From: an uncultured Trueperaceae bacterium
GTDB taxonomy: Bacteria > Deinococcota > Deinococci > Deinococcales > Trueperaceae
Direction of reading: 5' to 3'
Length of the DNA: 64,000 bases
NCBI GenBank assembly: GCA_963815215.1
Contig: CAWFFU010000011.1
Location: 96,001-160,000, forward strand
In this document: positions 1 through 18,856 of the stretch, in pieces
Layout: the number at the start of each line of letters is the position of its first letter
How positions within the stretch are numbered: the stretch's first letter is position 1
Notes under the pieces: model-generated
What the model was told of the DNA's origin: nothing
What the model saw: only the letters and a program-made list of their open reading frames with translations
The model's database searches: none
Translations under genes and position numbers: made by a program

Positions 1-1097
1 ATTGTCTCCTTGTAGAGACGTTCGGCCGCGGTGAAGTCACCAAGAAACTCGTTTATAAATGCCAAGGATCTCGCTGTCTCCGGACTACGCCGTGTGCGGT
101 GAGCTCGAGTGGCCTCGCCCAACGATCGGTCGTTGAATTCCACAGCCGCACGCAAAGCCCGAAGATCAGGCGCGTCATGAGCTTCAAGATACTTGTCGAC
201 CCTTGGGAGCATTGAGCGCCACTTGTTGACCGCTATTGCACTGTTGAACATCCAATACATGAATTCCTCTTGCCTGAACATCCAACGGGGTACTTCTGAC
301 ATATATCGCCAGAATCGCTCGAACTCACCGGCTTCAAAGTAGGCGTTTCCGGCCTCGCCAAGAACCTCGGCCAACCGGGTTTGAGCGTGGTCAAAAGCAA
401 ATTCAAATGCTTCGATCCATCGCTTGCGTGCAATCAGCACGTCGATGACTCCGTTGACTCCTTCACGAAATGCGGCCCCGAGGTAGTCGCCCAAGAGACC
501 CTGATTTGACTGCGTCCTCCGATTCAGCATGAGTGCATCTTCTATAGCGCTTAGCGCTCCGCCAGCGTCCATCACGGCCCGCTGAATATCGTGCGGGTCA
601 CGCTCCAGCTCGAATAGTTCCTGAGCTTCCGCAATCGTGATTCGGAGATCAGACCCTTCGATAGGAGAGGTGACGATTGCCTCCGCTATCGAAGGAATCA
701 CTTCGCAGGCATGCAGCACGAGTAGATTGGGAGAGCGAATCGACTCGAGAAGGCGAAGGGCCAGTTGGGGAGACTCGTCAGCGTTGACAACGGCAACAGT
801 AATCGGCTCAAGGGCTGGCAGGAAGGACTCAAACACCGCAAACGCATACTCTTCACCAACCCCAAGACCGAACAAGGAGGAGCCTAGCCCGCGGCGGAGG
901 GCTTCCGACAACGCGTTTCCAACGCTCACGGAGTCGCTGCACTCAACTTCGCGCAAATCCAAGAAGACAAGGGGCTGCTCTGGGTCACGTAGGCCAACGA
1001 ACACGCGCCGGAGCCCCCACTCGTCTCCTGCGACCACGAAGACCGGCGACGGCATCTCAAGAAGAGTGCGACGTACGCGCTCGAACCACGTATTCAT
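1..1097 (-). CDS. Putative TPR-containing (MalT/BTAD-like) regulator, N-terminal part; runs off the left edge
   Basis: Not in the ORF track because no stop falls inside the window. Manual translation from ATG 1097 (SD AAGGAGG) gives MNTWFERVRRTLLEMPSPVFVVAG...LRITIAEAQELF...EAGNAYFEAGEFERFW...FLGDFTAAERLYKE, with helical TPR-like segments. Confidence 0.65.
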   Translation of the reverse strand, partial: MNTWFERVRRTLLEMPSPVFVVAGDEWGLRRVFVGLRDPEQPLVFLDLREVECSDSVSVGNALSEALRRGLGSSLFGLGVGEEYAFAVFESFLPALEPITVAVVNADESPQLALRLLESIRSPNLLVLHACEVIPSIAEAIVTSPIEGSDLRITIAEAQELFELERDPHDIQRAVMDAGGALSAIEDALMLNRRTQSNQGLLGDYLGAAFREGVNGVIDVLIARKRWIEAFEFAFDHAQTRLAEVLGEAGNAYFEAGEFERFWRYMSEVPRWMFRQEEFMYWMFNSAIAVNKWRSMLPRVDKYLEAHDAPDLRALRAAVEFNDRSLGEATRAHRTRRSPETARSLAFINEFLGDFTAAERLYKET

Positions 1098-1230
1098 CTT
1101 GCCCTCCTTGTCAACTACTCCTCCTTGCTGTAGCCCCCGTGGGTCTGGTCTGAGTCCCCAACCCCCGTACAGCAAGCCTCAACTACTTGTTCCTGATCTT
1201 CCACCTCGGCAACCATCTATGCTCAGTTCA

Positions 1231-2418
1231 ATGCCGCTCTCCCCCCAGGCACTTAGGCGTCGCGCAAAGAAGTTCCTCGTGCGGAATCAGCTCCAGCTGT
1301 TTGTCCCCGTCCTTCCTGGACTAGAGCGCCTGACGGCCGAGCAGGCGAAGTCTATTGGCCAAGAGATCCGAATCGTGCACGGCGGCATTGAGTTTCGAGG
1401 TGACCTTGCCTCAATCTATCGGGCCAATCTCGCAGTGCGGACGGGAAACCGCGTGCTCCTCCGTCTGGGTCAGTTCCTATCACAAAGCTACCCCATGCTC
1501 TACAATCACGCACGCAGGATTGACTGGCCCGCCGTTCTAGGCAATTGCCCAGACGTCAGTATTGACGTATCGGCCCGCGAGTCTCGCCTCAATCACAAGG
1601 AAGGCATTCGTCAGGCAATTCTTGACGCAATTCGCAGTTCCATGGCGGAGCACGACGTCAACACTGTTCTCGTCGATGGCGGTCCCCTCACCGTGAAGGC
1701 GAGGCTCTACCAAGACAGGTGCACGCTAAGTCTCGACACAACAGGGGAACACCTTCACAAGCGGGGATATCGAAGTCACGCAACAACTGCGCCGATCCGC
1801 GAAACAACGGCAGCTGGCATGCTTCTCCTTGCCCAATCTAAATCGTATGACGTCATAATCGATCCATTCTGTGGGTCCGGAACATTCGCAATTGAGGCCG
1901 AGCTAATCGCTAGGAACTATCCCCCCGGGATGTCCAGACGCTTCGCAATCGAGAACAGTCCTTTGCACGCGCCCGGAATGCTTCGCCACATCGGCCGGCA
2001 GCTGCTCGCGAGTGCTAGCGACCATTCCACTCAGACTGTTCTCGGCTTCGACATCTCGCCGACTGCAATACAATCAGCCAAATACAATGCCGACAAGGCC
2101 CCCACGACAGGGGTCAAGTTCGCTGTGTGCGACGCTTTGGCACTGGACTTCAGCAGTCTCCTACCCGAAGGGACGAAAGGGTTGATCGCGGCCAACCTTC
2201 CCTATGGAGTCCGGCTTGGAACGCGCACGAAGACGCAGTCCTTGGTACGAGCCTTCTGCTCGGTCGTCGCCCGAACTGCTGTGGGATGGGACTTTCTGCT
2301 GATCATGCCAGAAGCAGACCCGGTTCGCGAACCGGGTCTGCTGGTTGAGCGTACACTTTCATTTTCCAACGGAGGCATCCCGGTAGTCGCTTCGTTGGGA
2401 CGTGTGGAGCAACGGTAA
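1231..2418 (+). CDS. THUMP-domain class I SAM-dependent RNA methyltransferase (RlmL/YpsC-like)
   Basis: Motifs SLDTTGEHLHKRGYR, APIRETTAAGML, DPFCGSGT and ANLPYG. Leaderless start: TATGCT 1218-1223, 7 nt, ATG 1231. The ORF-track extension to 637 is antisense to the upstream gene. Confidence 0.85.
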   Translation: MPLSPQALRRRAKKFLVRNQLQLFVPVLPGLERLTAEQAKSIGQEIRIVHGGIEFRGDLASIYRANLAVRTGNRVLLRLGQFLSQSYPMLYNHARRIDWPAVLGNCPDVSIDVSARESRLNHKEGIRQAILDAIRSSMAEHDVNTVLVDGGPLTVKARLYQDRCTLSLDTTGEHLHKRGYRSHATTAPIRETTAAGMLLLAQSKSYDVIIDPFCGSGTFAIEAELIARNYPPGMSRRFAIENSPLHAPGMLRHIGRQLLASASDHSTQTVLGFDISPTAIQSAKYNADKAPTTGVKFAVCDALALDFSSLLPEGTKGLIAANLPYGVRLGTRTKTQSLVRAFCSVVARTAVGWDFLLIMPEADPVREPGLLVERTLSFSNGGIPVVASLGRVEQR

Positions 2419-2456
2419 CGGTTGCGCGCAGCCCGCAGTCGCAAGTGCCCCGCATA

Positions 2457-3527
2457 TCAGATCGCGAACGGCGCGACCGACTCAGCCTTGGCCGACCCGT
2501 TGACCGAAGGGCTAGCGATCGCGGTACCATACTCGACCTGGCCTGCGTCTATCAACGATTCGAAGACAGGCACGATACTCGGATCAAACTGCGTTCCTGC
2601 ACCGTTCACAACGTACCTCAGGGCCTGTCCAACAGGCATGGGGCTTCTGTAAGGCCGCAAACTGGTCAGAGCCTCAAAGACATCCGCGATAGCGATGATG
2701 CGGGACAACTTCGGAATCTCGTCTCCTCGATATCCGAGAGGGTACCCGAGCCCGTCCCATCGCTCATGATGAGCTCGAACCACGTCAGCAATTGGTCTGA
2801 AGCCCTGAGACACGGACGCCAATAGATCTGCGCCATAACCGGGATGCCGCCGGATCTCGGCAAATTCGTCTTCCGAAAGTCGACCATTCTTCATAAGGAT
2901 GTACTCGGGCACAGCAATCTTTCCAATGTCATGGAGAAGGGCGGCCCAGTAGAGCACGTCCAAATCCTCCGCGCTCAATCCCAGGGCTAGGCCGAGAGCA
3001 ACCGCGTTCTTTGCTACGCGACGAGAATGTCCTTGGGTATGATCATCGCGGACCTCAACCGTGCGCGCAAGGCTTTCGAGAACCCTGTCTCGACCGAGAC
3101 TCGACGAACCACGGTCGATGTGCTGCATGGCCGAGGATGCTTTCGGCGCATGCCGACGTCGCAAGAGCCACGCACTCGCCCCAGCAAAGGCGACATACAG
3201 CACCGCCTGTACTACCCACGGTTCGCGTACTTGCACGAATGTCGGAATTGTCGCGTCCATCGCAGCAACCAGGCCTACCCCAAGAGCAAAGGACAGCCCC
3301 CACGAGTACGCGGCTAGCAGGATTGGAATATACAGCAACTGGAGCGCGGCCAGACGAGTCGAAGGAATCACGATGGACACGATTACCAGGACCATCAGTA
3401 GCGCTAGAACACCAATTCCCTTGGCCGGCAGGCCGTTTGAGCGCATCGCCGATCCAGAATCAAGAATCGCGCGCAGCCGCGATATGGCCTTGATTGCGCT
3501 CCTCACGTTGAAGCTCCGGATCTCCAC
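2457..3527 (-). CDS. Membrane-anchored HD-GYP c-di-GMP phosphodiesterase
   Basis: About 4 N-terminal hydrophobic helices, then HTQGHSRRV, LLHDIGK, HHERWDGLGYP and IADVFEAL. Start uncertain (3580, 3527, 3506 or 3446). Confidence 0.88.
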   Translation of the reverse strand: MEIRSFNVRSAIKAISRLRAILDSGSAMRSNGLPAKGIGVLALLMVLVIVSIVIPSTRLAALQLLYIPILLAAYSWGLSFALGVGLVAAMDATIPTFVQVREPWVVQAVLYVAFAGASAWLLRRRHAPKASSAMQHIDRGSSSLGRDRVLESLARTVEVRDDHTQGHSRRVAKNAVALGLALGLSAEDLDVLYWAALLHDIGKIAVPEYILMKNGRLSEDEFAEIRRHPGYGADLLASVSQGFRPIADVVRAHHERWDGLGYPLGYRGDEIPKLSRIIAIADVFEALTSLRPYRSPMPVGQALRYVVNGAGTQFDPSIVPVFESLIDAGQVEYGTAIASPSVNGSAKAESVAPFAI

Positions 3528-3722
3528 CCCATGATTGCCAAATGCGACAACTCAGGTTTGAGGAAGACGCGTACTCCCACGGCTGACGCCTCCTTTCGGC
3601 GTAACCGCAAAGTAGCAGGGTGACGCTTATTGTCCGTATAAACGCCACCCTACACGCACGTCTGGCAAGTTCTCAATCCGTTACGGCGTGCCTACTCCTC
3701 AAGCTGAGTCAGACTGCCAAAG

Positions 3723-3824
3723 CTACCTCTTGATCATGCTCACACCAGCCGTTGCAACGAACGGCATGGCGGCAAGGGCAGCAAACACGATTGCGGCAAA
3801 GATGCGCTTCCCAGTGTTCTTCAT
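3723..3824 (-). CDS. 33-aa secreted peptide precursor MKNTGKRIFAAIVFAALAAMPFVATA-GVSMIKR (candidate signalling propeptide)
   Basis: Below the ORF-track cutoff. ATG 3824 with GGGAGG/GGGA upstream and TAG at 3723-3725. Basic n-region, hydrophobic h-region, Pro and A-x-A site, then a 7-aa tail. Confidence 0.7.
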   Translation of the reverse strand: MKNTGKRIFAAIVFAALAAMPFVATAGVSMIKR

Positions 3825-4072
3825 ATGTGGTCCCATCCTCCCGTTTGGCCTGCGAAAGGCCACAACTACCTACACAGGTCTCCCAAAGCCTGAGTAGTCG
3901 CCTGCTGGTCTCCCAACCTCGCAGACAAATGACTGGCGGTACTCCGCCACCCTACGAACTGTTTGGAGCTTGAATTAGGAGTGAACCGAACCTCTCCTAT
4001 TAGCTCCCATCTCTTCCTGCACGGCGCCCAGAGGACCCCGAATCAAGCTGGCCTCCCAACCACCTTGATATG
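3825..4072 (-). promoter_or_regulatory. Structured ~250-nt 5' leader with repeated UGGGAG hairpin loops
   Basis: Hairpins at 4042-4069, 3965-4007, 3900-3926, 3863-3900 and 3846-3862. G-U pairs work only on the minus strand. UGGGAG at 4053-4058, 4004-4009, 3910-3915 and 3880-3885. Confidence 0.6.
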
Positions 4073-4078
4073 CGTTAC

Positions 4079-4108
4079 AAGCTACCACGTTGGGCAATGT
4101 ATCGTCAA
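4079..4108 (-). promoter_or_regulatory. Sigma70-type promoter for the peptide/HD-GYP transcript
   Basis: TTGACG (4108-4103), 18 nt, TAGCTT (4084-4079), with an extended -10 TG. Confidence 0.6.
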
Positions 4109-4317
4109 CGACGCTGGCATTCATCAGGAGCTTCGACCTAGGCGTATAATGGCGCTTCCACACGGCTTTAGTGGGATGCGCCTGTGGTCAATTGCGCGCA
4201 CCTAGAGCACCGAATACATTATCGTCGCCTAGGGTAGCCTCTCGGTTCAGTAGCAGCGGGCCTCTCACCTCAGCCCTGAGGCGCACCGCGTGGGCTAGAA
4301 AGGCCCTTGGAACAACG

Positions 4318-5982
4318 ATGAGTGAATCCGTACAGATGATGGTTACTAGGAGATTCCCCGGAATCCATCTCGAAAGTGAGGTCCAGGGTTGGGTCTTCCT
4401 CGAGGAGTTCGAGAAGGGCGTGGCAAGCTACGAAGCCACTACGACGCCCACGGCCAAAGACGATCGTTGGCTTGGTGTCTGCTACTTCCAGCTCTTCCGT
4501 GATCTTGATGCACTTGAGGCATTCTATCGAGCGATCAATCGCGGTGAAGACGCAGCTCGGGTGAACGCGGCGCATCTTCTCAAGTTTGTCGAACGATCTG
4601 AGGAAGCCAAGGAAGAACTCTCGAAGGTCGACCCCGAAACTCTCTGCACGTACGACAGGGTTCTATATCATCGGGTCCTTAGCATTCATGAAGAGAACAG
4701 CGGAAATCTTCGAGATGCCCTGAATGCTGCGGAAGAGGCGTGGCGACGTGTCCAGGGCATGCCTGAGTTCGGCCTACTTGCGCCAGCAATTCTTGTTCAA
4801 TTGGCAATCCTCCACGGGCGCATTGGAAGATCCCAGAGGGCCCTATGGTTTCTCGAACGGGGGCTGCAGTTCACAGGACCACTGGAGAATCTGAAGGTCA
4901 GATTGGGGCGGGCCGCCCTACTCATCAACCTTGGTCGATATCAGGAGGCACATGCAGAGCTAGAGTCAGTCGACCTAAGCGAGGCCCCTGCTTACCAGGT
5001 CCAGCAGCGCCTCCTTCACGGGGAACTTGATTGGGCGACTGGAAATCTGGAGCGCGCGATCCAGCAGTTCACGGCAGCATCTCAATCCGCCTTCGCACTC
5101 CAGGCCACGTACGAAGAGTTCCAGTGCCGTTTGTCGCTCGCATGCATTGTGGGAGCACGGAGGGACTTCTCCGTCGCGACGGACCATATGACCCGGGCAC
5201 AAGCACTTATTACCGACCGATCGGACCGCTTGGTCTACCGGTTCCGGGAAGTGCTCTTGCTCTATTGGATGGGCACGTATAAGCCGCAACATGCTCTTGA
5301 AGAGTTTGGGGCACTGGTGGTCGAGTTTGGTGAGATGGGCCTTCTTCAGGAACAGTGCTCCGTACACCTCCACATCGCGAACATCCTGTTTGAGATGGAG
5401 CGAGATGACTACACCCAAGAGCTTGACCGCGTGCAGGCGCTCAGCGTGTCCCTGCAGAACCAGGCTTTCCTATCGAAGGAATGGACGCTGCTCCCAAGAC
5501 TTCAGAAGGCCTCCCAGAAATCGCATGCTCGGATCGCTGGTCGAAGGAACATAGTCTTCGAAGTATTCACGCTTGGCAGCGAGAGGCTCCTTCTTGCAAA
5601 ACGGCCTGTGAACATCCCACTTCGCAGAGGCGTCGAAGTCTTGGCGTTCTTCCTGGAGAACAAGGCCGTGACCCTCAAGCAACTCCTCGCAGAGGTCTTC
5701 CCCGACGACAAGCCACGGAGCGCCAAGTCCTATTTCCATCAGTTCCGCCACCAGCTGCGTGAGAACGTCGAGGGCCTCGAGATCGAGTACGACGGTGAGT
5801 CGAAGATGTACCGGCTCAAGAGCGAGATCGACATTGTCTGGGACGTGTCGGAGCTGCGGGCAGGGCGGATCATGGGCAAGACCGGGTTGTTCCTGCCTAG
5901 CTCCGGGAACGACTGGGCGCTTGCCATCGACCGCTCTCTGGACACGTACAGGGAAGCCGCCGGAGTGCTCGAGATCGCCTGA
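4318..5982 (+). CDS. TPR-repeat protein with C-terminal OmpR/SARP-type winged helix and truncated BTAD-like tail (transcriptional regulator)
   Basis: TPR-like repeats (LGVCYFQLFRDLDALEAFYRAI, LAILHGRIGRSQRALWFLERGL, RAALLINLGRYQEAHAELE, HGELDWATGNLERAIQQFTAA). C-terminal VLAFFLENKAVTLKQLLAEVFPD...KSYFHQFRHQLR...YRL and GLFLPSSGNDWA. Start approximate. Confidence 0.8.
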   Translation: MSESVQMMVTRRFPGIHLESEVQGWVFLEEFEKGVASYEATTTPTAKDDRWLGVCYFQLFRDLDALEAFYRAINRGEDAARVNAAHLLKFVERSEEAKEELSKVDPETLCTYDRVLYHRVLSIHEENSGNLRDALNAAEEAWRRVQGMPEFGLLAPAILVQLAILHGRIGRSQRALWFLERGLQFTGPLENLKVRLGRAALLINLGRYQEAHAELESVDLSEAPAYQVQQRLLHGELDWATGNLERAIQQFTAASQSAFALQATYEEFQCRLSLACIVGARRDFSVATDHMTRAQALITDRSDRLVYRFREVLLLYWMGTYKPQHALEEFGALVVEFGEMGLLQEQCSVHLHIANILFEMERDDYTQELDRVQALSVSLQNQAFLSKEWTLLPRLQKASQKSHARIAGRRNIVFEVFTLGSERLLLAKRPVNIPLRRGVEVLAFFLENKAVTLKQLLAEVFPDDKPRSAKSYFHQFRHQLRENVEGLEIEYDGESKMYRLKSEIDIVWDVSELRAGRIMGKTGLFLPSSGNDWALAIDRSLDTYREAAGVLEIA

Positions 5983-6024
5983 TGGGCTCCGGCCCTGTCG
6001 GCAGCGCTTGTGGTAAGCTCATCA

Positions 6025-6092
6025 CAACGGAAGAGACGGTGGTAGGGAGATCCCGGAGCTGCGGTTGGGAGCCACACGCTCCGGGTTTTTCT
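6025..6092 (+). ncRNA. Candidate ~65-nt small RNA or 3' element with UUGGGAG loop and intrinsic terminator
   Basis: Extended -10 TGG-TAAGCT 6011-6019. Stem CCCGGAGC 6052-6059 / GCTCCGGG 6078-6085 with TTGGGAG at the apex, then TTTTT 6086-6090. Confidence 0.45.
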
Positions 6093-6324
6093 GTCGCGGT
6101 ACCGATGGTGATGGGGCCTCCGACCGGCTCCCCGCCTGGCCCGCCACGTGACCCGGCATTGTTCTAGGCCCCAAGTCATAGGGCCCAAGGCGTCATGGCC
6201 CCGCCATACGCGCGTTCCCAATGGTTTCCCGGGGCTGCTCCTTGGCATTCGTCTTGGACGTCATCCTGAACGTCGTTGCAGCGCAATCGTCGCGCGCAGC
6301 ACGTCGACCGTCGCGCCCGGGCTA

Positions 6325-6399
6325 CGTGCCGGCTGCTGGACGGTTGCGTGCCGGCTGCGGGACGGCTGTAAGAATCCCGTAAGACGAGCTGGCTATACT
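6325..6399 (+). promoter_or_regulatory. Promoter with direct-repeat operator upstream of the candidate sRNA
   Basis: 22-bp tandem repeat 6325-6368, GTAAGA-N5-GTAAGA (6368-6373 and 6379-6384), and -10 TATACT 6394-6399. Confidence 0.5.
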
Positions 6400-6404
6400 C
6401 GCTT

Positions 6405-6493
6405 CGTGGACCTGAGGTAACTCTCCCAGTACCTCTTCCCATCTCTTCCGAAAACCGGGCTCCGCGCCTCCCACGCGGAGTCCACCCTTTTTT
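6405..6493 (+). ncRNA. Candidate ~89-nt sRNA with C-rich (CUCCCA) hairpin loops
   Basis: -10 TATACT upstream. Hairpin GAGGTAAC-[TCTCCCA]-GTACCTC 6414-6435, linker TTCCCATCTCTTCCG, 10-bp hairpin GGGCTCCGCG-[CCTCCCA]-CGCGGAGTCC 6457-6483 (G-U pair only on +), then T6 at 6488-6493. Confidence 0.6.
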
Positions 6494-6717
6494 GGCAACC
6501 CCACGATACAGGCGATCGCCTTCGCGCGCCGTAAAATCCAACGCAGAGTAGTTGTCGGTCCCCGACGCCGTGAAAGGCGTTTGGAGGGCCGGCATGGGCT
6601 GCGCAATCACCGTCACGTCGACCGCGCTTCCGTGCCGCCTTTGCTTGCAGGAGGCACCGGAATTGTGTTAGAAAAGGTAGTTGCCAGCTTAAACGAAATG
6701 AGGAGGAAGCCCCTTTC

Positions 6718-8955
6718 ATGGACGAAAAAGCAAACCCGGCCGAGGGAAGCCCTGTCCCGGCCACCGACCAAGCCCCGGAGGAAGTCACGATCCAGGCCCC
6801 ATCCGCGGCAGCTGATCAGGGAACAGGCACCGCGATGGCGAACGAAAAGGATCTCGACCCACAGGAACGGGCTCCCCAAGAAGACGCCGCAGCGGATACG
6901 ATAGAGAGCGTCGACTCCGACGCAAACGCAGTCACCGAACCGGTGGCTGATGTGCCCGTAGCGGCGCAAGCCGACAACGCGCAAGACGACAACGCGCAAG
7001 ACGACAACTCCGAGATGACGATGGAGGACGTGCTGGCTGCCAGCGATGAGCAGCTCGCGCGCAAGCCTGTCCACCGCGGCATGATCACCAACGGACAGGT
7101 CATCATGCTCTCGCAGGACGGCATCATCGTCGATGTGGGCGCGAAGATCGAGGGCATCCTGCCCTACAACCAGCTCTTCGAGTTCGAGACGAACGCCGAA
7201 GACGCTGCGAAGTACTTCAAGCCCGGCGACGAGATCCAGGTCTACGTCGTCCGCTCGGACATCCCCAACAACACCATCGTGCTCTCCAAGAAGCGGGCTG
7301 ACCAGGAACGCGCCTGGAACCTGTTGCAGGAGATCCACGACAAGGAGAAGCCGGTCGAGGTCGAGATCATCGAGAAGGTTCGCGGCGGGCTCGTCGCCAA
7401 CCTCGGGATCCGCGCCTTCCTGCCGGCCAGCCAGGTCGATGTGCGCCGGGTCAACGACCTCGCGCCCTTCGTGGGGCTGCGCCTCAAGGTCAAGATCATC
7501 GAGCTCAACCGACGCCGCAACCGCGTCATCATCTCGCGTCGGTCGATCCTCGAAGAGGAGATCGCCGAGAAGAAGTCCGAGACGCTCCAGAAGCTCGAGC
7601 CCGGTATCAAGCTCGACGGCGAGGTCGTGGAGATCACCGACTTCGGGGTGTTCGTCAACCTCGGCGGGATCGACGGCCTGGTCCACCGCAGTGAGCTCAC
7701 GCACGGGCGCTTCAGCCACCCACGCGATGTCGTCAAGGTGGGCGAGAAGGTGCGCGTCGAAGTCCTCGACATGGACCTCGAACGCGAGCGCATCAACCTG
7801 TCCATGAAGTCGCTGCTGTCGAACCCCTGGGACAACGTCCTGGCCAACTACAGCATCGGCCAGCGGATCTCGGGCAAGGTCACCAACCTCACCCCGTTCG
7901 GTGCCTTCGTGGAGATCGAACCGGGCCTCGAAGGACTCATCCACGTCAGTGAGATGAGTTGGACCAAGCGCGTGCGTCACCCCAAGGAGATCGTGACCGA
8001 GGGCGACGAGGTCGAGGCCATGATCCTCAAGGTCGACACCAGCCAGCAGCGCATCTCGCTCGGTCTCCGTCAGACCCAGCCCGATCCCTGGAGCAGCCTG
8101 CCGGACCGCTACCCTCCCGGCACCGAGGTCACCGGCCCGATCACCGGCATCACCGACTTCGGCGTGTTCATGGAGATCGAAGAGGGCATCGAGGGCCTGG
8201 TCCACATCAGCGAGCTGAGCCACGACCACATCGAGAACATCAACGACCACTTCAAGCGTGGCGACGAGGTCACCGCGGTGATCCTCAACATCGATCCGGT
8301 CGAGCAGCGCGCCAGCCTGTCGCGTAAGCGGCTCCTCCCCTTCTCTGCCACCGACCTGGAATCCGTCGGCACCGGAGCCCCCGCCTCTCGCGGCGGCGCC
8401 CGTCGCGGCGGCCGGCGCAGTCGGCGCGGCTCGGACATCGACTACGATTACAGCTACGCTTCGTCCGATGCCAGCAACAAGGCCACCACGAAGCTCGGTG
8501 ACGTCTATGCTGACCTCTTCGCCCAGTTCGGTCTGACTGACAACAAGGGCGATCAGGATGAGGACTCCAGCGGGACCGACGAGGCAACGGCCGGCGCTGC
8601 CGAAGCGGCCGAGGCCGGTGCCGAAGCTTCCGCCGACCAGGGGATCGCAGCCGACGAGCCGCAGGCCGCCGTTGAGGCGACCGACACGCAGAGCGAGCCC
8701 GTCGCCGCCGCCCCGGAGGAAGCCGCCCCGGAGGAAGCCGAGCCGGCAGCGGTGAGCGCGCAACCTGAAGTCGCCGTCGAGGCCAAGAAGGCCGATGCCG
8801 ACGAGGTCGACCCCGAGAACGCCATCGATGCAGCCGAGGCCGCGGCCATGCTCACGGCCGCCTTCCGCGAGGGCAAGCGACCCAAGGCAGAGCAGAAGGC
8901 CGAAGCCACGGTCGAAGAGGAGAAGGCGGAGGACGCCGAAACCTCGAACGCCTGA
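6718..8955 (+). CDS. rpsA: 30S ribosomal protein S1 with long acidic N- and C-terminal extensions
   Basis: Five S1 repeats ([83 protein letters not shown]). SD GAGGAGG. Confidence 0.97.
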
Positions 8956-8971
8956 TCTCGAATCCGCACTA

Positions 8972-9010
8972 CAGAAGGGGCGTCGCTCATCGCGAGCGAC
9001 GCCCCTTCTG
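8972..9010. terminator. Bidirectional hairpin between convergent rpsA and htpX
   Basis: Perfect 17-bp inverted repeat CAGAAGGGGCGTCGCTC / GAGCGACGCCCCTTCTG. Confidence 0.8.
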
Positions 9011-9096
9011 CTTGCGGTCACGCTGACGGCGCGCTGGCTCGCCCCCCTCCCGGGAACCCCAGCGCCCCGTCCCCGGTTGGGAGGCCGCAGGAGCCC

Positions 9097-10083
9097 TTAC
9101 ATCCGCCGCAGACGGTCGATTCTCTGTTGGATCGGAGGGTGGGTGGCGAACAGATCCATGCTGTTGTGGTGCGCGAGGGGATTGACGATGAACATGTGGC
9201 GCACGCCTTCGGAGACCTCCAAGTCCTCGCCCTGGTAGCCGCCGAGCTTCTCCAGCGCGCTCGCCAGCCCCTCCGGATTGCGCGTGATGTAGGCGCCGGT
9301 GGCGTCCGCCAGGAACTCACGGCGGCGACTGACGGCCAACCTCAGGATGGTCGCCAGGATCGGCCCGAGCACGAGCAAGGCGATCAGCAGGACCACCATG
9401 ATGCCCTGACCACGGTTGTTGCCCTGGCCGGACCCGCCCCCGCTACCGCGCCGGCTTCGCGATCCACCGAACGCACCGAACTGGAACCAGCGCAGCACCA
9501 GGTCGCGCAGGATCACGATGGCGCCGACGGTCGCCGCCAGCATCGACAGGAACCGGATGTCGTAGTTGCGCACGTGCGCCATCTCGTGGGCGACCACCCC
9601 CTCCAGCTCCTGCCGGTCCATCATGTCGATGAGACCTCGGGTGACCGCGATCGAGGCGTGCTGCGGGTCGCGCCCGGTGGCGAAGGCGTTGGGGGCAGGC
9701 GAGTCGATCACGTATATGTTGGGCGTCGGAACCCCTGCCCCGAGGGCGACTGCTTCGGTGACATTGACGAGATAGCGATGCTCGTCCTTGGTGGCCTTGC
9801 GGGCGCCTGCCGCGCCCAACGCGATCTGATCGCTGAACCAGTATGCCGCCACGCTCTGCCCGGCGCCGATGAACCCCGCTACCGACACGAAGAACAGCGC
9901 CGAGCCCGGATTCGTGACTTGCGCCAGAAGGTATCCGATGGCACCCAACAGCGCCACCATGATCAATCCCAGGACCCAGGACATCCTGCGATTGGACGCC
10001 TGCCAGTCGAGGAGGTTGATGCGCCTCCCGGTGGCCCTGTCAGTGATGACGTTCGGCAGGACCCCTGCGCTGCGTGACGTCAT
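9097..10083 (-). CDS. htpX: M48 zinc metalloprotease HtpX
   Basis: PNAFATGR, VVAHEMAHVRNYD, SRRREFLADA and FATHPPI motifs. Follows lemA. Confidence 0.92.
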   Translation of the reverse strand: MTSRSAGVLPNVITDRATGRRINLLDWQASNRRMSWVLGLIMVALLGAIGYLLAQVTNPGSALFFVSVAGFIGAGQSVAAYWFSDQIALGAAGARKATKDEHRYLVNVTEAVALGAGVPTPNIYVIDSPAPNAFATGRDPQHASIAVTRGLIDMMDRQELEGVVAHEMAHVRNYDIRFLSMLAATVGAIVILRDLVLRWFQFGAFGGSRSRRGSGGGSGQGNNRGQGIMVVLLIALLVLGPILATILRLAVSRRREFLADATGAYITRNPEGLASALEKLGGYQGEDLEVSEGVRHMFIVNPLAHHNSMDLFATHPPIQQRIDRLRRM

Positions 10084-10106
10084 GATGGGTCCGTCGCCGG
10101 CTCAGC

Positions 10107-10661
10107 TCAGCCCGCGAACGACACCTTCGGCGCTTCGCGCTCGGCTTCGGGGATCTCGAGGAAGACGGCCTTCTTCTTGTTCATCGGGCCCGCCATGAAC
10201 ACGCCCGGCACCGTCTCGATGGCGTTGTTGAACTGGAGCACGGCGTCGTTGTAGAACTGCCGCGCGTAGGCGATCTTGTTCTCGACGCTGGACAGTTCCT
10301 CCTGGAGCATCTTGAAGTTCTCGTTGGCCTTGAGCTCGGGGTAGTTCTCGGCGATAGCGAACAACCGACCCAGCGCACCCGTCATCTGGTTCGCGGCCTC
10401 GGCCGACTCACCCACGTTCTTCGCGTTCATGAGGGCCTGCCGCGAGTGCGCGACCTCCTCGAACACGGCCTTCTCGTGGGCGGCGTAGCCTTTGACAGTC
10501 TCTACGAGGTTGGGGATCAGGTCGACGCGTCGCTTGAGCTGAACGTCGATCTGGCTCCACGCGTTCTCGTAGCGATTCTCCAAACTGATGATCCGGTTGT
10601 AGACCCCAACCGCCGAGATCACCAGGATGGCCAGAATGACCAACACCACGATGGTCGCCAT
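10107..10661 (-). CDS. lemA: LemA family protein
   Basis: AWSQIDVQLKRRVDLIPNLVETVKGYA and ENYPELKANENF. Confidence 0.95.
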   Translation of the reverse strand: MATIVVLVILAILVISAVGVYNRIISLENRYENAWSQIDVQLKRRVDLIPNLVETVKGYAAHEKAVFEEVAHSRQALMNAKNVGESAEAANQMTGALGRLFAIAENYPELKANENFKMLQEELSSVENKIAYARQFYNDAVLQFNNAIETVPGVFMAGPMNKKKAVFLEIPEAEREAPKVSFAG

Positions 10662-10753
10662 AAGACCTCCTGGCGTTCAGTCTACTGGACAGCGCCGATT
10701 GCACAGAGCGAAAATCTACGCCGCCCCGCTGTCACGACCTGCGGCGGACGCCG

Positions 10754-11857
10754 TCAGGACGATCGACGGCGGATCACGCCGCCGCCCAGCAGACGGTCGC
10801 CCTGGTAGAGGACGGCAGACTGACCGATCGTGACCGCGAACTGCGGTTCCTCGAAATCGAGCCGGAAGCCGTCACCCGTGGCCGTCAACATCGCCGGCAC
10901 CGGCGCCTGCCGGTAGCGGACCTGAGCGTTCACCTGCCGCGGCAGCTTCGCTTCGTCCACCAGGAAGTTGCCGCGTTCCGCCGTGAGACCCGACCAGAAG
11001 CACATCTCGCGAGGGCCTACCACGACCGTGTTGTCGGCGGGGCGGAGGTCGATGACGAAGCGCTCCAGGTGCGACTTCCACAGCCCCAACCCCTTCTTCT
11101 GGCCGATCGTGTAGAACTGCACGCCGCGGTGCTCGCCGACCACCGCGTCCCCCTGGCTTGCATCCACCACCGGGCCCGGCCGTTCCCGGCTCGCGTCCTG
11201 GAGATAACCGCGGACCGTGTCCGGCACGAAGCACAGACCCGATGAGCTCTTCTTCTCTGCCGTGAGCAGACCGCGATCGGCCGCGAGCGAACGTACGTCA
11301 CGCTTGCTCAGTTCCCCGAGCGGGAACAGCAGGTATTGCAGGATGTCGCGCGGAAGCGCCCACAGGAAGTACGTCTGGTCCTTGTCGTCGTCCCGGCCCC
11401 GGTGCAGCTCGACTCCGTCGGGCCCGTCCACCCGCCGCACGTAGTGTCCGGTGGCAAGGAAGTCGCACCCCAGGACTCGCGCCCGCTCGATGAAGGCGCC
11501 GAACTTGATGTGCCGGTTGCACCACACGCACGGGTTCGGCGTCTCCCCGGCCTCGTAGGTCGGCACGAAAGGATCGACGACGATCTCCTGGAACCGGTCG
11601 CGGAAGTCGAGCAGATAGAAGGGGATGTCCACCGCGTCGGCGACACGACGGGCGTCGTACGCGGCCGCCGGGCTGCAACAAAGGTCGAAAGCGCCGCTCG
11701 GGCCCTCGTCGGGCCAGAACCGGGCCATGGTACCGACCACCTCGAAGCCCCCCTCGCGCAACAGTGCGGTGGCCACCGACGAGTCGACGCCGCCCGACAT
11801 GGCACTCAGGACCTTCGGGGCGACAGCACGCTTCGGGATGGGATCGAACCGTTCCAC
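10754..11857 (-). CDS. mnmA: tRNA 2-thiouridylase MnmA
   Basis: AMSGGVDSSV, TPNPCVWCNRHIKF, ATGHY and KDQTYFL. Confidence 0.96.
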   Translation of the reverse strand: MERFDPIPKRAVAPKVLSAMSGGVDSSVATALLREGGFEVVGTMARFWPDEGPSGAFDLCCSPAAAYDARRVADAVDIPFYLLDFRDRFQEIVVDPFVPTYEAGETPNPCVWCNRHIKFGAFIERARVLGCDFLATGHYVRRVDGPDGVELHRGRDDDKDQTYFLWALPRDILQYLLFPLGELSKRDVRSLAADRGLLTAEKKSSSGLCFVPDTVRGYLQDASRERPGPVVDASQGDAVVGEHRGVQFYTIGQKKGLGLWKSHLERFVIDLRPADNTVVVGPREMCFWSGLTAERGNFLVDEAKLPRQVNAQVRYRQAPVPAMLTATGDGFRLDFEEPQFAVTIGQSAVLYQGDRLLGGGVIRRRSS

Positions 11858-11962
11858 GGCCCATCAGTCTAGCTGACCGGCTCGCGCATGACCCGGGATG
11901 GGCGACACCCTCTTCGGGGAGCGCGGCGCACGTGCGGTAGACTGGTCCGCACGGAGGTGGAT

Positions 11963-12331
11963 GTGAAAGGCGCTCGCATCCTGCAGCTCGTCTTGGTCAT
12001 CGTGTTGGCGCTCTATCTGGTGGCGTTCAACAACGTGAACCCGGACCCCCTGACGCTGCCGCTTCTCCCCATGCTGATCCCGATGCCGCCGGTGATCGTG
12101 GTGATCGTCGCGTTGCTGGGCGGCTGGCTGGTGGGCTGGCTCCCCACCCGGATCGCGCTGTGGCGCCGAGCTCGCGAAGTCCGTCGGCTGCGCCAGCGCT
12201 TGAACGAGCTGGAGGGTGAGCACACCGCACGGGAGACCGATGCCGGCGAGCGCGCCCCCGTCATCCCGGACCGCTTCCCCGTCATCCCGGACAGGCCCCC
12301 ACAGCGCGACGAGGGAACCGAGTCGTCGTGA
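11963..12331 (+). CDS. LapA/DUF1049-like small membrane protein
   Basis: SD GGAGG then GTG. Two TM helices around AFNNVNPDPLTL, then a coiled coil and a duplicated PVIPDR. Stop overlaps the recJ start. Confidence 0.7.
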   Translation: MKGARILQLVLVIVLALYLVAFNNVNPDPLTLPLLPMLIPMPPVIVVIVALLGGWLVGWLPTRIALWRRAREVRRLRQRLNELEGEHTARETDAGERAPVIPDRFPVIPDRPPQRDEGTESS

Positions 12332-14655
12332 GCCCGGCCGACGACGCTCGGCCGCCTTCGCCTCTCTGGTTCCTGCGTCCGCCCGCGCCCCCGCACGCCG
12401 TCCGCTCGCTGGCGCGCAGCCTCGGCGTGCCGCCGTTGCTGGCCGCCATGTTGTGGTCGCGCGGGTTACGCGACGACGCCCCAGAGCACCTCAATCCGCC
12501 CCTGGAGCTCACCCGGATCCCTCACCTGGACGCGGCCGCCGAACGGCTCGAGCGAGCCATCCGCGGCAGCCAGCGCATCCTCGTGCACGGCGACTACGAT
12601 GCCGACGGCATCAGCGGCACCGCGGTCCTGACCCTGGGCCTGCGGGAGCTGGGGGCCAGGGCCGAACCCTTCATCCCCAACCGGCTCACCGACGGCTACG
12701 GCATCCACCCCGAGCGCGTGCCCGAGCACGCGGAGCGGTGCGAGCTGTTCGTCACGGTCGACTGCGGCATCACCAACCTCGCCGAGATCCGAAGCCTCCA
12801 GGACGCCGGCGTCGAGGTCATCGTCACCGATCACCACACTCCCGGCGACGCCCGCCCCGATTGCCTGGTGGTCCACCCGGCCACCTCGCCGCTGGCCCGG
12901 GACGGCCTGCCGCAACTGACCGGGGCCGGCGTCGCGTTCCATCTGCTGTGGGCGCTGCGCCGACGTCTCGGCCTGGATCGGCCGGACGACTATGCCGACC
13001 TCGCGACCATCGGCACCATCGCCGACGTCGCTCCGCTGCTCGGCGAGAACCGTGCCCTCATCGTTCCGGGGCTGCAGCGCCTGGCCAACTCGCGCTGGGC
13101 CGGCGTACGCGCGATCGTCCGGCAATCGCACCTGCGCGGCGATATCACCGCCCGCCAGGTGGCCTTCGTGGTGGCGCCCAGGCTGAACGCCGCCGGCCGC
13201 CTGGGCGAGGCGGAACTGGGGCTGGAGCTGCTCACAACGGCCAGCGAGCGCCGCGCCAACGAGCTCGCCGCCTACCTCGACGCCCGCAACCAGGACCGGC
13301 GCCGGATCCAGGACGAGATGTTCGCCCAGGCGCTGGAGATCGTGGATCCGGACGCCCCGGCGCTGGTGGTCGAGGACGCCCGCTGGCACCCCGGCGTCAT
13401 GGGGATCGTCGCTTCCAAACTGCTCGAACGCTTCTACAAGCCCGTCTACATCATCGCCAAGGGGAAGGGCAGCGTCCGTTCCACGCCCGGCATCTCGGCG
13501 GTGAACGGGCTCCGCGCAGCCTCCGAGCACCTGCTGCGCTATGGCGGCCACGCCCAGGCCGCCGGCTTCGCCCTGGACATGGCGAAGCTCCCCGCCTTCC
13601 GTGACGCCATCCACGTCTACGCCGCGCGCTTCCCACGTCCGCAACCGCAGATCACGGCCGACGCCGTGCTCTCCGGAGGCGAGGTCGAACGCGGGCTATG
13701 GCAGGCCATCCGCACCCTCGAGCCCTTCGGAGAGGGCCACCCGGCCCCGGTCTTCGCGCTCACGGATCGCCTCGACAGCGCCCGCGCCGTCGGCCGTGAC
13801 GGTGCCACCCTGCAGCTCAGGATCGGGGGCGTCAAGGGCGTGGCCTGGCAGATGGGCACGCTGGCCGAGGCCCTGCCCCTGGGCGAGCCCGTGAACGCGG
13901 CCGTGACACTCGCGGAGAACGAGTGGCGGGAGCGGAAGACCCTGGAGTTCGTGGCGGAAGCGGTGCGCCCCGCCGAACGTCTCGGCCTCGCCCCCACGCA
14001 CGACGGTCACGGCGCCACCGACACCGCCACCCTGCGCGTGGTTCGTGGCGCGCTGCCCGGGCTCCGTCCCCTGGACCCGCCCGACCTCGGCAGCCTGCTC
14101 GAGGCCCTGAACGGCGCGTCCAACGGTGCCCCCGATGCCGCGCCCGACGTGTGGTTGCGTGGCCTTCCCGACGACGGCGCCGTGCCTGCGCTGCGCGCGC
14201 TGATGCAGCGGGCGTCACGGATCGGCCTCGACTTCGAGGAGCCGGCGCTGGCCGCCCTGCAGGCCGAGGCCTTGCGCTTCCCCACCCTCGACGAGGTACG
14301 CCGCGGGTTCGTGGCGTTGCAGCGGGGCCTCGCGCTGCCATTCGAGGAGATCAAGGCCCAACGCGTCCGGGCGGTGCTCGAGGAACTCGCCTTGCTCGAC
14401 GGGAGCGGCCACGTGCTGAGCGGCCAGAAGCGTGACCCCTACACCTCGGACACGCTGCTCGACGGTCTTCTGCGGCGCCACCTGCTGCTGCGCTTCGTCA
14501 CTGCGTTCCGCTTCCTGGACGACGCCGGCTTCGCGTACAGCGTTCACACCCTGTTCGGCTCCGACAGCGCGCCGGAGGCGACCGGCCCGGGTCGGGCCGG
14601 AGCCGGCGAGACGGCCCCAGCCGGCATCGCGGCCGACGGCGTGCCCACCTCCTGA
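12328..14655 (+). CDS. recJ: Single-stranded DNA exonuclease RecJ with C-terminal extension
   Basis: HGDYDADG, TVDCG, VTDHH, PRLNAAGRL and YGGHAQAAG. Confidence 0.96.
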   Translation: MSPADDARPPSPLWFLRPPAPPHAVRSLARSLGVPPLLAAMLWSRGLRDDAPEHLNPPLELTRIPHLDAAAERLERAIRGSQRILVHGDYDADGISGTAVLTLGLRELGARAEPFIPNRLTDGYGIHPERVPEHAERCELFVTVDCGITNLAEIRSLQDAGVEVIVTDHHTPGDARPDCLVVHPATSPLARDGLPQLTGAGVAFHLLWALRRRLGLDRPDDYADLATIGTIADVAPLLGENRALIVPGLQRLANSRWAGVRAIVRQSHLRGDITARQVAFVVAPRLNAAGRLGEAELGLELLTTASERRANELAAYLDARNQDRRRIQDEMFAQALEIVDPDAPALVVEDARWHPGVMGIVASKLLERFYKPVYIIAKGKGSVRSTPGISAVNGLRAASEHLLRYGGHAQAAGFALDMAKLPAFRDAIHVYAARFPRPQPQITADAVLSGGEVERGLWQAIRTLEPFGEGHPAPVFALTDRLDSARAVGRDGATLQLRIGGVKGVAWQMGTLAEALPLGEPVNAAVTLAENEWRERKTLEFVAEAVRPAERLGLAPTHDGHGATDTATLRVVRGALPGLRPLDPPDLGSLLEALNGASNGAPDAAPDVWLRGLPDDGAVPALRALMQRASRIGLDFEEPALAALQAEALRFPTLDEVRRGFVALQRGLALPFEEIKAQRVRAVLEELALLDGSGHVLSGQKRDPYTSDTLLDGLLRRHLLLRFVTAFRFLDDAGFAYSVHTLFGSDSAPEATGPGRAGAGETAPAGIAADGVPTS

Positions 14656-14698
14656 TCGACCGGGCAGAAGGCCGTGAGGCGCGTGCGATACTGACGGC

Positions 14699-17611: not shown

Positions 17612-17830
17612 AAGGCCAGCTTCCGTCCCGAACGTAGGATCCGAACGTAGCGCCCACGTGCGCCGACCGCCCCCCAACCCCGGGCGATGGAGGCCGCGGA
17701 CGCCCGGCGGGACGCGGTGACGGCTGCCCGGCGTCCGCCAGAGATTGCGCGTACCATGCGTTAGATCGGCTTCGTGGAGCGGCCTGTCGTGCCGCGGTCA
17801 ATGCCGCGGCGTTTCCCTAGGAGGGGTCTC

Positions 17831-18811
17831 ATGATGAGACGGGCCGTGTTGTTGTGCCTTGCGCTGGCGGCCTCGGCATTGATGTTGTCGGCGTGCAGTA
17901 CCTCGAGCAGTGGCGCGGCGAAAGCCACCTTCAACGGGGTGACCGCGCTCGACCCGGTGGCCGGTTCCGCCGACTTCAGCGTCAGCGCCCTGGACAGCCA
18001 GGGCAAGGTGGTGACCACCGGGACGCTCTCGGACGTCGCCATCACGGTGACGTCGGTGGCTGACAGCGGTGGGCCGATCTCGACGTCGTACTCGGCCACC
18101 GCCACGATCTGCGGCCAGATCACCGGCAGCAGCGGCGACATCACCGGGATCCTGACGCTCGACGCCACCGGCTCGATGTCCTCGAGCGACCCCACCATGC
18201 TGCGCGCAGACGCGGCCAAGGGGTTCGTCGCCCGCATGGCCTCGACCGATCGCGCCGCCGTCGCCTCGTTCGACACGAGCGTGACGCCCACGTCCGGGTA
18301 CCTGGCCATCTACCTGCACCAACCGCTCACGTCGGACAAGACCCTACTGGACACCGCCATCGACGCGGCAACGTACAACGGTGGCACCACCAACCTGTGG
18401 GACGCCGGCGTCGACAGCGCCAACTACCTCGCCTCGGTCACCGGCAGCAACAAGATGGCCTTGCTCCTCACCGACGGCGCGGACAACGCCTCCTCGAGCA
18501 CGCCGGCGAACGTCGTCTCGGCGGCCCAGTCGGCCGGCGTGAAGGTCTACACAGTGGGTCTCGGGAGCTACGTCGACTCGCAGGATCTGATCGACATCGC
18601 CTCTCAGACCGGCGGGACCTACACCCAGGTGCAGGACGCCACCGACCTCAGCGCCCTGTTCGACAGCATCTTCAACGCCACGCAGGCCGCGGGCTGCATC
18701 CACGTGCAGTTCAGCCCCGTTCCTGCGTCCGGCCACATCATCACGGGCCGGTTGACCTTCAAGCTCGACGGCCAGCTGCTGACCGCCGACTACGTCGTGT
18801 ACTTCCCGTAA
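17831..18811 (+). CDS. VWA-domain lipoprotein
   Basis: Lipobox LSAC, MIDAS-like LDATGSM and LLTDG, VYTVGLG, IASQTGG. Confidence 0.85.
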   Translation: MMRRAVLLCLALAASALMLSACSTSSSGAAKATFNGVTALDPVAGSADFSVSALDSQGKVVTTGTLSDVAITVTSVADSGGPISTSYSATATICGQITGSSGDITGILTLDATGSMSSSDPTMLRADAAKGFVARMASTDRAAVASFDTSVTPTSGYLAIYLHQPLTSDKTLLDTAIDAATYNGGTTNLWDAGVDSANYLASVTGSNKMALLLTDGADNASSSTPANVVSAAQSAGVKVYTVGLGSYVDSQDLIDIASQTGGTYTQVQDATDLSALFDSIFNATQAAGCIHVQFSPVPASGHIITGRLTFKLDGQLLTADYVVYFP

Positions 18812-18854: not shown

Positions 18855-18856
18855 GG

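Follow-up and report, generated by a model that had tools for sequence, protein, structure and literature searches.

In a 64,000-nucleotide (nt) window of contig CAWFFU010000011.1, from an uncultured bacterium of the family Trueperaceae, the gene for a 33-residue peptide is preceded by a leader with four copies of the hexamer UGGGAG. A candidate small RNA (sRNA) gene lies ~2.4 kb from the peptide gene, downstream of a divergent regulator gene that encodes tetratricopeptide repeats (TPR) and a SARP-like domain. As judged from complementarity, conservation, and gene order, the leader is probably a multivalent pairing target, or a sponge, for this neighboring C-rich sRNA. Coordinates are positions in the window (the whole stretch analyzed), in which the leader and the peptide open reading frame (ORF) lie on the minus strand. 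Two CUCCCA loops of the sRNA were exact complements of the UGGGAG loops of the leader, and its linker, UUCCCAUCUCUUCC, matched leader site 3, GGAAGAGAUGGGAG, over 14 contiguous pairs, 13 of them Watson-Crick and one G-U. Furthermore, UCCCAUC in the linker matched GAUGGGA between the Shine-Dalgarno sequence and the AUG of the peptide gene (7 pairs). The complement of the full 17-nt linker had no other exact site in the genome besides the sRNA gene itself. The first-pass annotation of this DNA had proposed that the leader is a multivalent landing pad for either a complementary sRNA or a CsrA-like protein, and the first of these partners now has a concrete candidate at 6402 to 6493 on the plus strand.

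The two RNAs also occurred together in relatives. The peptide was present in 48 of 128 Trueperaceae genomes, and the sRNA was found in 46 of these 48 genomes versus 47 of the 80 that lacked the peptide. In 19 genomes, the sRNA was on the same contig as the peptide gene, 1.7 to 4.2 kb from it and beyond the regulator. Among 22 cognate pairs of sRNA and leader, the longest complementary run was 13 nt long in the median case and 20 nt at most; in 8 pairs it fell at the ribosome-binding site (no more than 30 nt from the start codon), and in the other 14 it lay further upstream, mostly at site 3. Duplex energies compared with those of shuffled sRNAs gave a mean z of -3.2, with 17 of 20 values below -2. 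In addition, a lineage-specific extra G in site 3 (GAGG-N-UGGGAG) was mirrored by an extra C in the linker (AUCCUC). Three xCCCA motifs were present in 20 of the 22 sRNAs, and the cognate leaders held 2 to 5 copies of UGGGAG.

These features suggest how the two RNAs might interact. The CUCCCA loops of the sRNA could make loop-loop "kissing" contacts with the UGGGAG loops of the leader, while the single-stranded linker, UCCCAUC(C)UCUUCC, would pair with site 3 and with the ribosome-binding site, and together these contacts would make binding both strong and specific. Initiation of peptide translation would be blocked by pairing at GAUGGGA, which lies between the Shine-Dalgarno sequence and the AUG. 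The effect could also run in the reverse direction, with the many sites on an abundant leader soaking up the sRNA. If the regulator activated the sRNA, then regulator, sRNA, and peptide mRNA would form a closed circuit of three parts.

The UGGGAG copies were located at 4058-4053, 4009-4004, 3915-3910, and 3885-3880 on the minus strand, the places given in the first-pass annotation. The second of these copies is the end of site 3 (4017-4004), and UGGGA occurs once more between the Shine-Dalgarno sequence and the AUG, within GGGAGGAUGGGA (3842-3831), which ends 6 nt 5' of the ATG at 3824. The leader was the sole spot in the 3.3-Mb genome with at least four same-strand copies inside 300 nt; four clusters of three copies were found, every one inside long open frames. 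Thirty-seven distinct related loci were gathered, 36 of them with upstream sequence. The 36 leaders, 7,793 nt in total, contained 123 TGGGAG and 0 CTCCCA, versus 2 and 2 in the 10,800 nt upstream of them and 3 and 3 in the 10,623 nt downstream. At least three consecutive pairs flanked 78 of the 123 leader copies, and, as read by eye, GGAUGGGA at the ribosome-binding site was preserved in most of the 37 leaders. The leader thus appears to be a strand-specific RNA element made of hairpins that would show UGGGAG in loops of 6 to 7 nt, plus two linear copies of the motif context, at site 3 (GGAAGAG-N-UGGGAG) and at the ribosome-binding site (GGA(A/G)GGAUGGGA).

Covariation was found in all four classes of UGGGAG hairpin, which were assigned by position and not by pairing. 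For H1 (36 sequences), 70% of the cells were paired, the four inner pairs formed in 32 to 35 of 35 cases, and 0 of 500 shuffles reached the score. H5 (25 sequences) was 69.6% paired, with a double change in 10 of 10 pairs and again 0 of 500 shuffles. H6 (13 sequences, aligned in the register of a 7-nt loop) was 65% paired, and 0 of 500 shuffles reached its score; displacing the register by two columns left no covariation signal. A further hexaloop hairpin, H1b, follows H1 by 23 to 35 nt in 18 relatives, with none in this genome; it was 97.6% paired (25 to 45% in slid-partner controls), with compensatory changes in 7 of 7 pairs. The closing pairs varied (U-A, U-G, C-G, G-C, and A-U) around an unchanged loop, and the number of hairpins per leader ranged from 2 to 5 between genera. 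Conservation and compensatory stem changes across homologs therefore back the landing pad of the first-pass annotation, and the predicted fold leaves its loops single-stranded. Its list of three UGGGAG-loop hairpins held for H1 and H5, while H6 is ambiguous in this genome and the fourth copy lies in a stem. Its statement that the stems differ in sequence was right for the outer stems and not for the inner stem, GGU...(A/G)CC, which is common to the hairpins.

A TTGACn-17/18-TAnnnT layout ended 16 to 25 nt before the first UGGGAG in 32 of the 36 leaders. A generic promoter scan called no promoter at 4079 to 4108, where this layout falls here. The conserved promoter upstream of H1 places the start of transcription at ~4072 and not near 3824, the position that the first-pass annotation had named as contrary to its reading, so that H1 would be the first element of the transcript. 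This position also bears on the reading that TGGGAG is a DNA operator of the neighboring winged-helix regulator, the C-terminal domain of which resembles SARP/OmpR DNA-binding domains. The copies are direct repeats on one strand, as an operator might be, but they lie downstream of the start site at irregular spacings (23 to 26, 30, 49, and 94 nt), and only two were found in the 10,800 nt upstream of the 36 leaders. Their flanks covary to keep pairing, including U-G pairs, which are mismatches in DNA; G-U pairs and compensatory changes argue for RNA, against the operator that the first-pass annotation had named as its own counter-explanation. Moreover, the GTAAGA repeats with 11-bp spacing at the sRNA promoter are a much better operator candidate, and we regard a role of TGGGAG in this capacity as exceedingly improbable.

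The minimum-energy fold of 4072-3822 on the minus strand had -99.8 kcal/mol (z of -2.93, with 0 of 200 shuffles as good); the plus strand of the same stretch had -79.6 kcal/mol and a z of -4.13, so that the minus strand was better by 20 kcal/mol. For a wider slice, 4110-3800, z was only -1.47. In H1 and H5, GGGA was in the loop and the flanking U and G were drawn as a U-G pair. The copy at 4009-4004 was paired with AGCUCC (3970-3965) and is therefore in a stem, not exposed; the pairs of this hairpin, P3, were mostly invariant, with weak covariation. In this genome, the H6 motif was either partly paired or in a 10-nt loop, whereas relatives present it in a 7-nt loop, N-UGGGAG. The 3' arm of P3 was also considered as a switch that masks the ribosome-binding site and was rejected, as the best partner of that site differed between leaders.

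The U1-G6 closure, which leaves a GGGA tetraloop, is what would be expected if the leader acted in cis only, either as a compact tertiary fold or riboswitch-like sensor with U-G-closed tetraloops of the GNRA type docking into helices or, given H1 at the 5' end, as a 5'-hairpin stabilizer of the mRNA. The Rfam motif flg-Rhizobiales (RF01736), listed in a table of PMC2864571, likewise has two hairpins with U-GGGA-G caps in its consensus. It was the only match of the leader in Rfam 15, at 15.1 bits (E = 4) versus a gathering score of 55, and, unlike the leader, it lies upstream of other genes in Rhizobiales; none of the families matched the leader at threshold, and positions 1 to 20000 of the window matched nothing at gathering scores. 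Other GNRA sequences never replaced GGGA in the loops, no conserved receptor or junction was seen, the range of 2 to 5 hairpins is unlike a fixed fold, and the motif is also present in linear form, at site 3 and at the ribosome-binding site. A purely cis-acting leader is highly improbable on these grounds.

The loops might also serve as Shine-Dalgarno-like decoys or standby sites for the 30S subunit, raising or buffering translation of the short ORF with no dedicated partner. The 3' end of 16S rRNA is GGAUCACCUCCUUUCU, and its CCUCCU can pair with GGGAG(G), in the case of GGGAGG over six pairs including one G-U; the true ribosome-binding site bears the same motif. Anti-Shine-Dalgarno pairing, however, needs neither the strict U at position 1 nor the whole hexamer, about half of the H1 loops have an A next, which weakens the match, and the other Shine-Dalgarno variants (GGAGG and AGGAG) were unused in loops. 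We consider such ribosome sites distinctly improbable as the explanation of the array.

An RNA-binding protein that recognized the UGGGAG loops by CsrA- or ANTAR-like logic, with the copy at the ribosome-binding site serving translational repression, would account for an identical hexaloop on stems of arbitrary sequence, for the tandem hexaloop hairpins of the 18 relatives, and for GGA-containing motifs at the ribosome-binding site. CsrA/RsmA-controlled leaders (pgaA and hcnA) and sponges (CsrB and RsmZ) are comparable to this leader of ~240 nt, having 4 to 6 GGA sites, some in loops and one at the ribosome-binding site; the CsrA consensus is A(N)GGA. In the leader, GGA is found within the UGGGAG loops and with GGAUGGGA at the ribosome-binding site, but the flanks depart from A(N)GGA, the loop being UGGGAG. 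The CsrA family, PF02599, was found neither in this genome (97% complete) nor in any of the 128 family genomes, under a control that matched Escherichia coli, Bacillus subtilis, and Thermotoga maritima. The CsrA-like partner of the first-pass annotation fails for this reason. FlbT and Hfq were not found in this genome either. The dual-hexaloop sites of ANTAR proteins (EutV, AmiR, and NasR), which the sponge RNA EutX also carries, are tandem hairpins. Their 6-nt loops have A as the first and G as the fourth nucleotide (PMC8934654). Tandem 6-nt loops occur in the relatives with H1 and H1b and, in this genome, in H5 and H6, 30 nt apart, and G4 is present. However, position 1 is U in all aligned loops, and no terminator overlaps the second hairpin. 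The ANTAR family, PF03861, gave 0 matches in this genome and 0 in 81 phylum genomes, with a control that itself matched 0 of 14 known genomes. A global regulator would also predict a genome-wide set of hairpins, which was not seen, and a perfectly matching RNA partner lies next door. A protein reader of the loops is improbable, and pairing with the sRNA is preferred.

Several results weigh against pairing of leader and sRNA or limit its reach. A G-rich leader and a C/U-rich sRNA, with G-U pairs allowed, gave a mean run of ~10 nt on shuffling, and only 8 of the 22 cognate pairs beat all but at most 2 of 200 shuffles. Two close relatives, G002 and G004, have two central mismatches in site 3 and a longest run of 9 nt. 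The peptide leader cannot be the sole purpose of the sRNA, which 47 of the 80 peptide-less genomes also carry. The missing Hfq gene of this genome is no bar to sRNA action but leaves no chaperone to be named. In the sRNA, the stem of hairpin 1 is invariant and so is without covariation support, and RNAalifold favored pairing of GAGG with CUCC of the CUCCCA motif itself. The leader motif was not enriched at large: the window had 33 TGGGAG versus 37.8 expected and 8 TTGGGAGRCC versus 8.3 expected. Genome-wide, hairpins with UGGGAG loops were not more common than those with permuted hexamers (12 of 1,417 copies had at least five flanking pairs), and 15.1% of UGGGAG copies lay in hairpins of -8 kcal/mol or better, versus 12.8 to 14.6% for five control hexamers. 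A genome-wide count of the kind advised in the first-pass annotation thus gave no excess, and no genome-wide set of UGGGAG hairpins that might form a regulon was seen in these hairpin and cluster counts. Finally, metatranscriptome contigs were available from three runs, for relatives only and for small shares of the stretch. The ORF is spanned by three such contigs, of 339, 290, and 152 nt; two extend through the leader to ~4053, and two end 9 to 15 nt past the stop codon; the libraries may hold DNA, so these contigs are weak RNA evidence for the leader.

Table 1. Positions of the leader, peptide gene, regulator, and sRNA features in the window
Feature	Position	Strand	Basis
Promoter of peptide transcript: -35 TTGACG 4108-4103, 18-nt spacer, -10 TAGCTT 4084-4079	4079..4108	-	Sequence
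Structured 5' leader, ~245 nt, seven hairpins	3825..4072	-	Minimum-energy fold, relatives
Hairpin H1, at the 5' end; loop UGGGAG 4058-4053	4042..4069	-	Fold and covariation
Hairpin H2, without UGGGAG here, only degenerate CUGGGCG	4022..4040	-	Fold
Site 3, GGAAGAGAUGGGAG; most conserved unstructured-looking leader element, resembling the ribosome-binding site	4004..4017	-	Sequence
Long hairpin P3; UGGGAGCU of site 3 pairs with AGCUCCA (3970-3964)	3963..4009	-	Fold
Hairpin H4, UGGCGG-AGUA-CCGCCA; sequence variable in relatives	3934..3949	-	Fold
Hairpin H5; loop UGGGAG 3915-3910	3898..3928	-	Fold and covariation
Hairpin H6; UGGGAG 3885-3880; weak or ambiguous here	3870..3897	-	Fold
Hairpin H7, directly 5' of the ribosome-binding site; sequence variable	3846..3862	-	Fold
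Ribosome-binding region GGGAGGAUGGGA; GAUGGGA 3837-3831 complementary to sRNA UCCCAUC	3831..3842	-	Sequence
33-codon ORF, MKNTGKRIFAAIVFAALAAMPFVATAGVSMIKR	3723..3824	-	Open frame, relatives
Terminator-like hairpin 3' of the ORF, AGGGUGGCG..CGUCACCCU, conserved inner UUAUACGG..AUAAG	3617..3651	-	Sequence, relatives
Divergent regulator, 554 amino acids: TPR superhelix (1-407), then C-terminal winged helix of SARP/OmpR type	4318..5982	+	Predicted structure
Terminator hairpin of the regulator gene; loop UUGGGAG 6065-6071, U5 run	6053..6090	+	Sequence; 85-90% identical in four genus relatives
sRNA promoter: repeats TGTAAGA 6367-6373 and CGTAAGA 6378-6384, 11-bp period, 9 nt, -10 TATACT 6394-6399	6367..6399	+	Sequence
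Candidate sRNA, ~90 nt	6402..6493	+	14-copy alignment, covariance model
sRNA hairpin 1, GAGGUA/UACCUC, CUCCCA in loop 6423-6428	6414-6435	+	Fold
sRNA linker UUCCCAUCUCUUCCGAA	6436-6452	+	Sequence
sRNA terminator hairpin, 7-nt loop CCUCCCA (CUCCCA 6468-6473)	6457-6483	+	Fold
sRNA U6 run	6488-6493	+	Sequence

The sRNA gene lies in a 735-nt gap between the end of the regulator gene (5982) and the start of rpsA (6718), as a block whose conservation extends over several genera. With a covariance model of 14 aligned copies, the copy in the window scored 103.9 bits, and the family was detected in 93 of the 128 Trueperaceae genomes (a count that includes the unpublished genome G118), often with 2 to 5 copies per genome. 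Outside the family, 3 weak matches were obtained in 138 genomes, versus 9 of 12 family genomes. Over 29 distinct sequences, the sRNA structure was 98.7% paired (38 to 57% in slid-partner controls), with compensatory changes in six terminator pairs, and the CUCCCA and UCCCAU motifs were invariant in the alignment. The candidate has the general marks of a trans-acting base-pairing sRNA, namely, a promoter, a terminator, conserved structure, and a single-stranded seed, from which we infer that it is produced. A simple search for CUCCCA-loop hairpins in tandem, with at least five pairs per stem and at most 2 additional loop nt per side, returned one pair in a coding region and missed the sRNA. A second, divergent copy was found elsewhere in the genome at G000:C3:870860-870939 (-), with 35.9 bits, loops CUCCCCCA and CCCCCCA, and a promoter of the GTAAGA type. 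In several genomes of one genus (L097, L101, L059, and L066), the gene is tandemly duplicated ~190 to 210 nt apart, each copy with its own repeat-bearing promoter. The adjacent rpsA gene (6718-8955, +) encodes a ribosomal protein S1 of 745 amino acids with long acidic N- and C-terminal extensions and was a neighbor of the module in 10 of 31 loci.

No Rfam family matched the sRNA at threshold, the best being ar14 at 17.2 bits versus a gathering score of 58.8 (E = 0.33) and then FsrA at 14 bits; given that score, the sRNA is not a member of ar14. It nevertheless resembles the Cuckoo/CcsR/ar14 RNAs of Alphaproteobacteria (RF02344) in having a C-rich anti-Shine-Dalgarno motif in hairpin loops, often several copies per genome, and a position beside a small ORF. 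In CcsR RNAs, CCUCCUCCC occupies two hairpin loops per molecule (PMC8034643), whereas the sRNA loops here are CUCCCA and CCUCCCA and the phylum is Deinococcota. Unlike the cuckoo RNAs, moreover, the sRNA lies behind the TPR/SARP-like regulator and not a DUF1127 gene, and its presumed target is an array of complementary G-rich loops.

Other sequences that the sRNA might pair with were noted. Directly upstream of the regulator terminator, GGAAGAGAC..GGGAG resembles site 3, and the 3' end of the regulator mRNA may also be a target of the CUCCCA sRNA. On another contig (G000:C12), a gene starts at ~3933 (-) with UUGGGAAGGGAUGGGAAGA-AUG (start region GGGAAGGGAUGGGAAGA-AUG), followed by a hydrophobic N terminus, MASRQGLLALLITLPVVA; this start has two mismatches to the full linker complement and may be a further target of the sRNA, as far as the complementarity goes. 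An exact copy of GGTTGGGAGACC at contig C11:1230 was discarded; an unrelated gene is followed there by a terminator-like hairpin, and the copy occupies its 10-nt loop. Two tRNA-based readings of the leader loops were dropped as well: UUGGGAG is complementary to the anticodon loop of tRNA-Gly(CCC), UUCCCAA, and the 7-nt loops resemble the CUGGGGG loop of tRNA-Pro(GGG). Supporting architecture was seen for neither, and by our estimate ~1 hexamer in 20 would fit by chance.

The regulator gene adjoined the peptide gene in 29 of the 31 loci. By TM-score, its TPR part was closest to the Rap-Phr complex 4gyo_A (target-normalized TM of 0.74), and the best, though weak, matches of its C-terminal domain were AfsR and EmbR, in their SARP DNA-binding domains (E = 6e-3; query-normalized TM of 0.65), followed by OmpR/PhoB-family domains. 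In Pfam, only NNH6 reached threshold, in 15 of 18 members. The C-terminal domain was detected in 55 of the 128 family genomes, 54 of which also carry the sRNA. A complex prediction for the TPR domain with the peptide gave a median score of 0.02, which counts neither way. The sRNA promoter has no -35 box, with heptamer direct repeats in its place: a strict pattern matched TGTAAGA-N4-(T/C)GTAAGA exactly 9 nt before the -10 box in 22 of 28 copies, and the remaining 6 have AGTAAGA..TGTAAG, as read by eye. The classical SARP site consists of heptamer repeats arranged in units of 11 bp that generally overlap the -35 box (PMC10972967). The promoter layout and the SARP-type domain fit a SARP-regulated promoter, to which we infer that the regulator could bind, and the repeats replacing the -35 box suggest that the sRNA is activated by the SARP-like regulator. 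Among the 7-mers upstream of the peptide promoter, the most common was [AT]TATACG, present in 22 of 36 loci (here at 4141-4150, -) at a distance from the first UGGGAG that was fixed per locus group, either -86 to -90 or about -153 to -156. It was rejected as an operator; in the opposite direction its sequence is CGTATAAT or CGTATATT, most likely the -10 box from which the divergent regulator gene is transcribed.

The peptide has a basic N terminus and a single hydrophobic helix, followed by 6 to 8 C-terminal residues that vary between relatives, and variation at third (synonymous) codon positions indicates that the ORF is under protein-level selection. A sample of the phylum contained it in 17 of the 40 Trueperaceae genomes and in none of the 160 genomes from other families. 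NCBIfam and Pfam contained no match to the peptide, and an Atlas search returned the peptide itself letter for letter and no usable look-alike. GC-rich hairpins, many with U runs, followed the stop codon in most loci, as read by eye, and the transcript looks like a self-contained unit of promoter, leader, ORF, and terminator. Across several genera, the hairpin after the ORF keeps an inner palindrome, CG(U/C)UUAU(A/G)CGG..AUAAGCG, which exceeds what a plain terminator needs.

As a whole, the module resembles the RRNPP systems (Rap/Phr, Rgg/SHP, and PrgX/PrgQ), in which a TPR receptor-like protein lies beside a small exported-looking peptide gene. In contrast to RRNPP proteins, which have an N-terminal XRE-type helix-turn-helix, the regulator here has a C-terminal winged helix of the SARP/OmpR type, and the system is in Deinococcota; peptide sensing is a putative function. 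Type I toxin-antitoxin systems are similar in that a small hydrophobic peptide is accompanied by an sRNA with apparent complementarity to its leader. Here, the regulator is always between the peptide and sRNA genes, and the peptide gene is single copy. Staphylococcus RNAIII is a single transcript that combines a small hydrophobic peptide with repeated loop motifs for RNA-RNA pairing in a cell-signaling locus, a combination to which the leader and its ORF can be likened. However, RNAIII bears C-rich loops directed at G-rich ribosome-binding sites, whereas here the G-rich loops are on the peptide mRNA and the C-rich ones on a separate sRNA.

A wider reading, rather unlikely in our estimation, is that the TPR/SARP-like protein senses the peptide and, from the heptamer repeats, drives the CUCCCA-loop sRNA, several motifs of which would clamp onto the UGGGAG-loop array of the peptide's own mRNA. 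That mRNA would in turn be a sponge and set how much of the sRNA family, which would have other targets across the genome, is free; such a self-contained three-part signaling circuit would be one not described before. If it were true, the C-rich-loop sRNAs (cuckoo, RsaE, and RNAIII) would have their first "mirror image" on an mRNA in the G-rich hexaloop array. To our knowledge, no peptide signaling has been reported in the phylum Deinococcota, and we know of little on its posttranscriptional control. Literature searches for UGGGAG hairpin loops, for Trueperaceae small RNA, and for Deinococcus tetratricopeptide peptide quorum sensing (the last by title and start of abstract) returned nothing relevant. 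The analysis defined two RNA families without a match in Rfam 15, the UGGGAG-loop leader and the CUCCCA-loop sRNA, which together with the SARP-like TPR regulator and the conserved peptide form a module confined to Trueperaceae. A matched pair of multiloop RNAs would illustrate how specific multivalent RNA-RNA recognition can operate in Deinococcota, with no CsrA detected in the family genomes (and no Hfq in this one), and it offers a testable example of an mRNA that is possibly both target and sponge. The peptide-regulator pair also raises the question of peptide signaling outside Firmicutes.

Genes on the far side of the peptide gene varied between loci. In the window, the peptide gene is followed by an HD-GYP gene (3527-2457), which just 10 of the 31 loci have in this place. 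Genes downstream of the peptide gene code for a second large TPR protein (~830 amino acids) in 17 of these loci and for a LuxR-type (GerE) regulator in 5. A short ORF at 3503-3582 (-), with a strong AAAGGAGG site and a GTG at 3582, overlaps the annotated GTG start of the HD-GYP gene, and an extra UGGGAG is present at 3579-3574 (-). Elsewhere in the genome, G000:C14:80850-81300 contains ~400 nt that consist almost entirely of G, interspersed with a few A residues; this tract is probably an artifact of assembly or sequencing.

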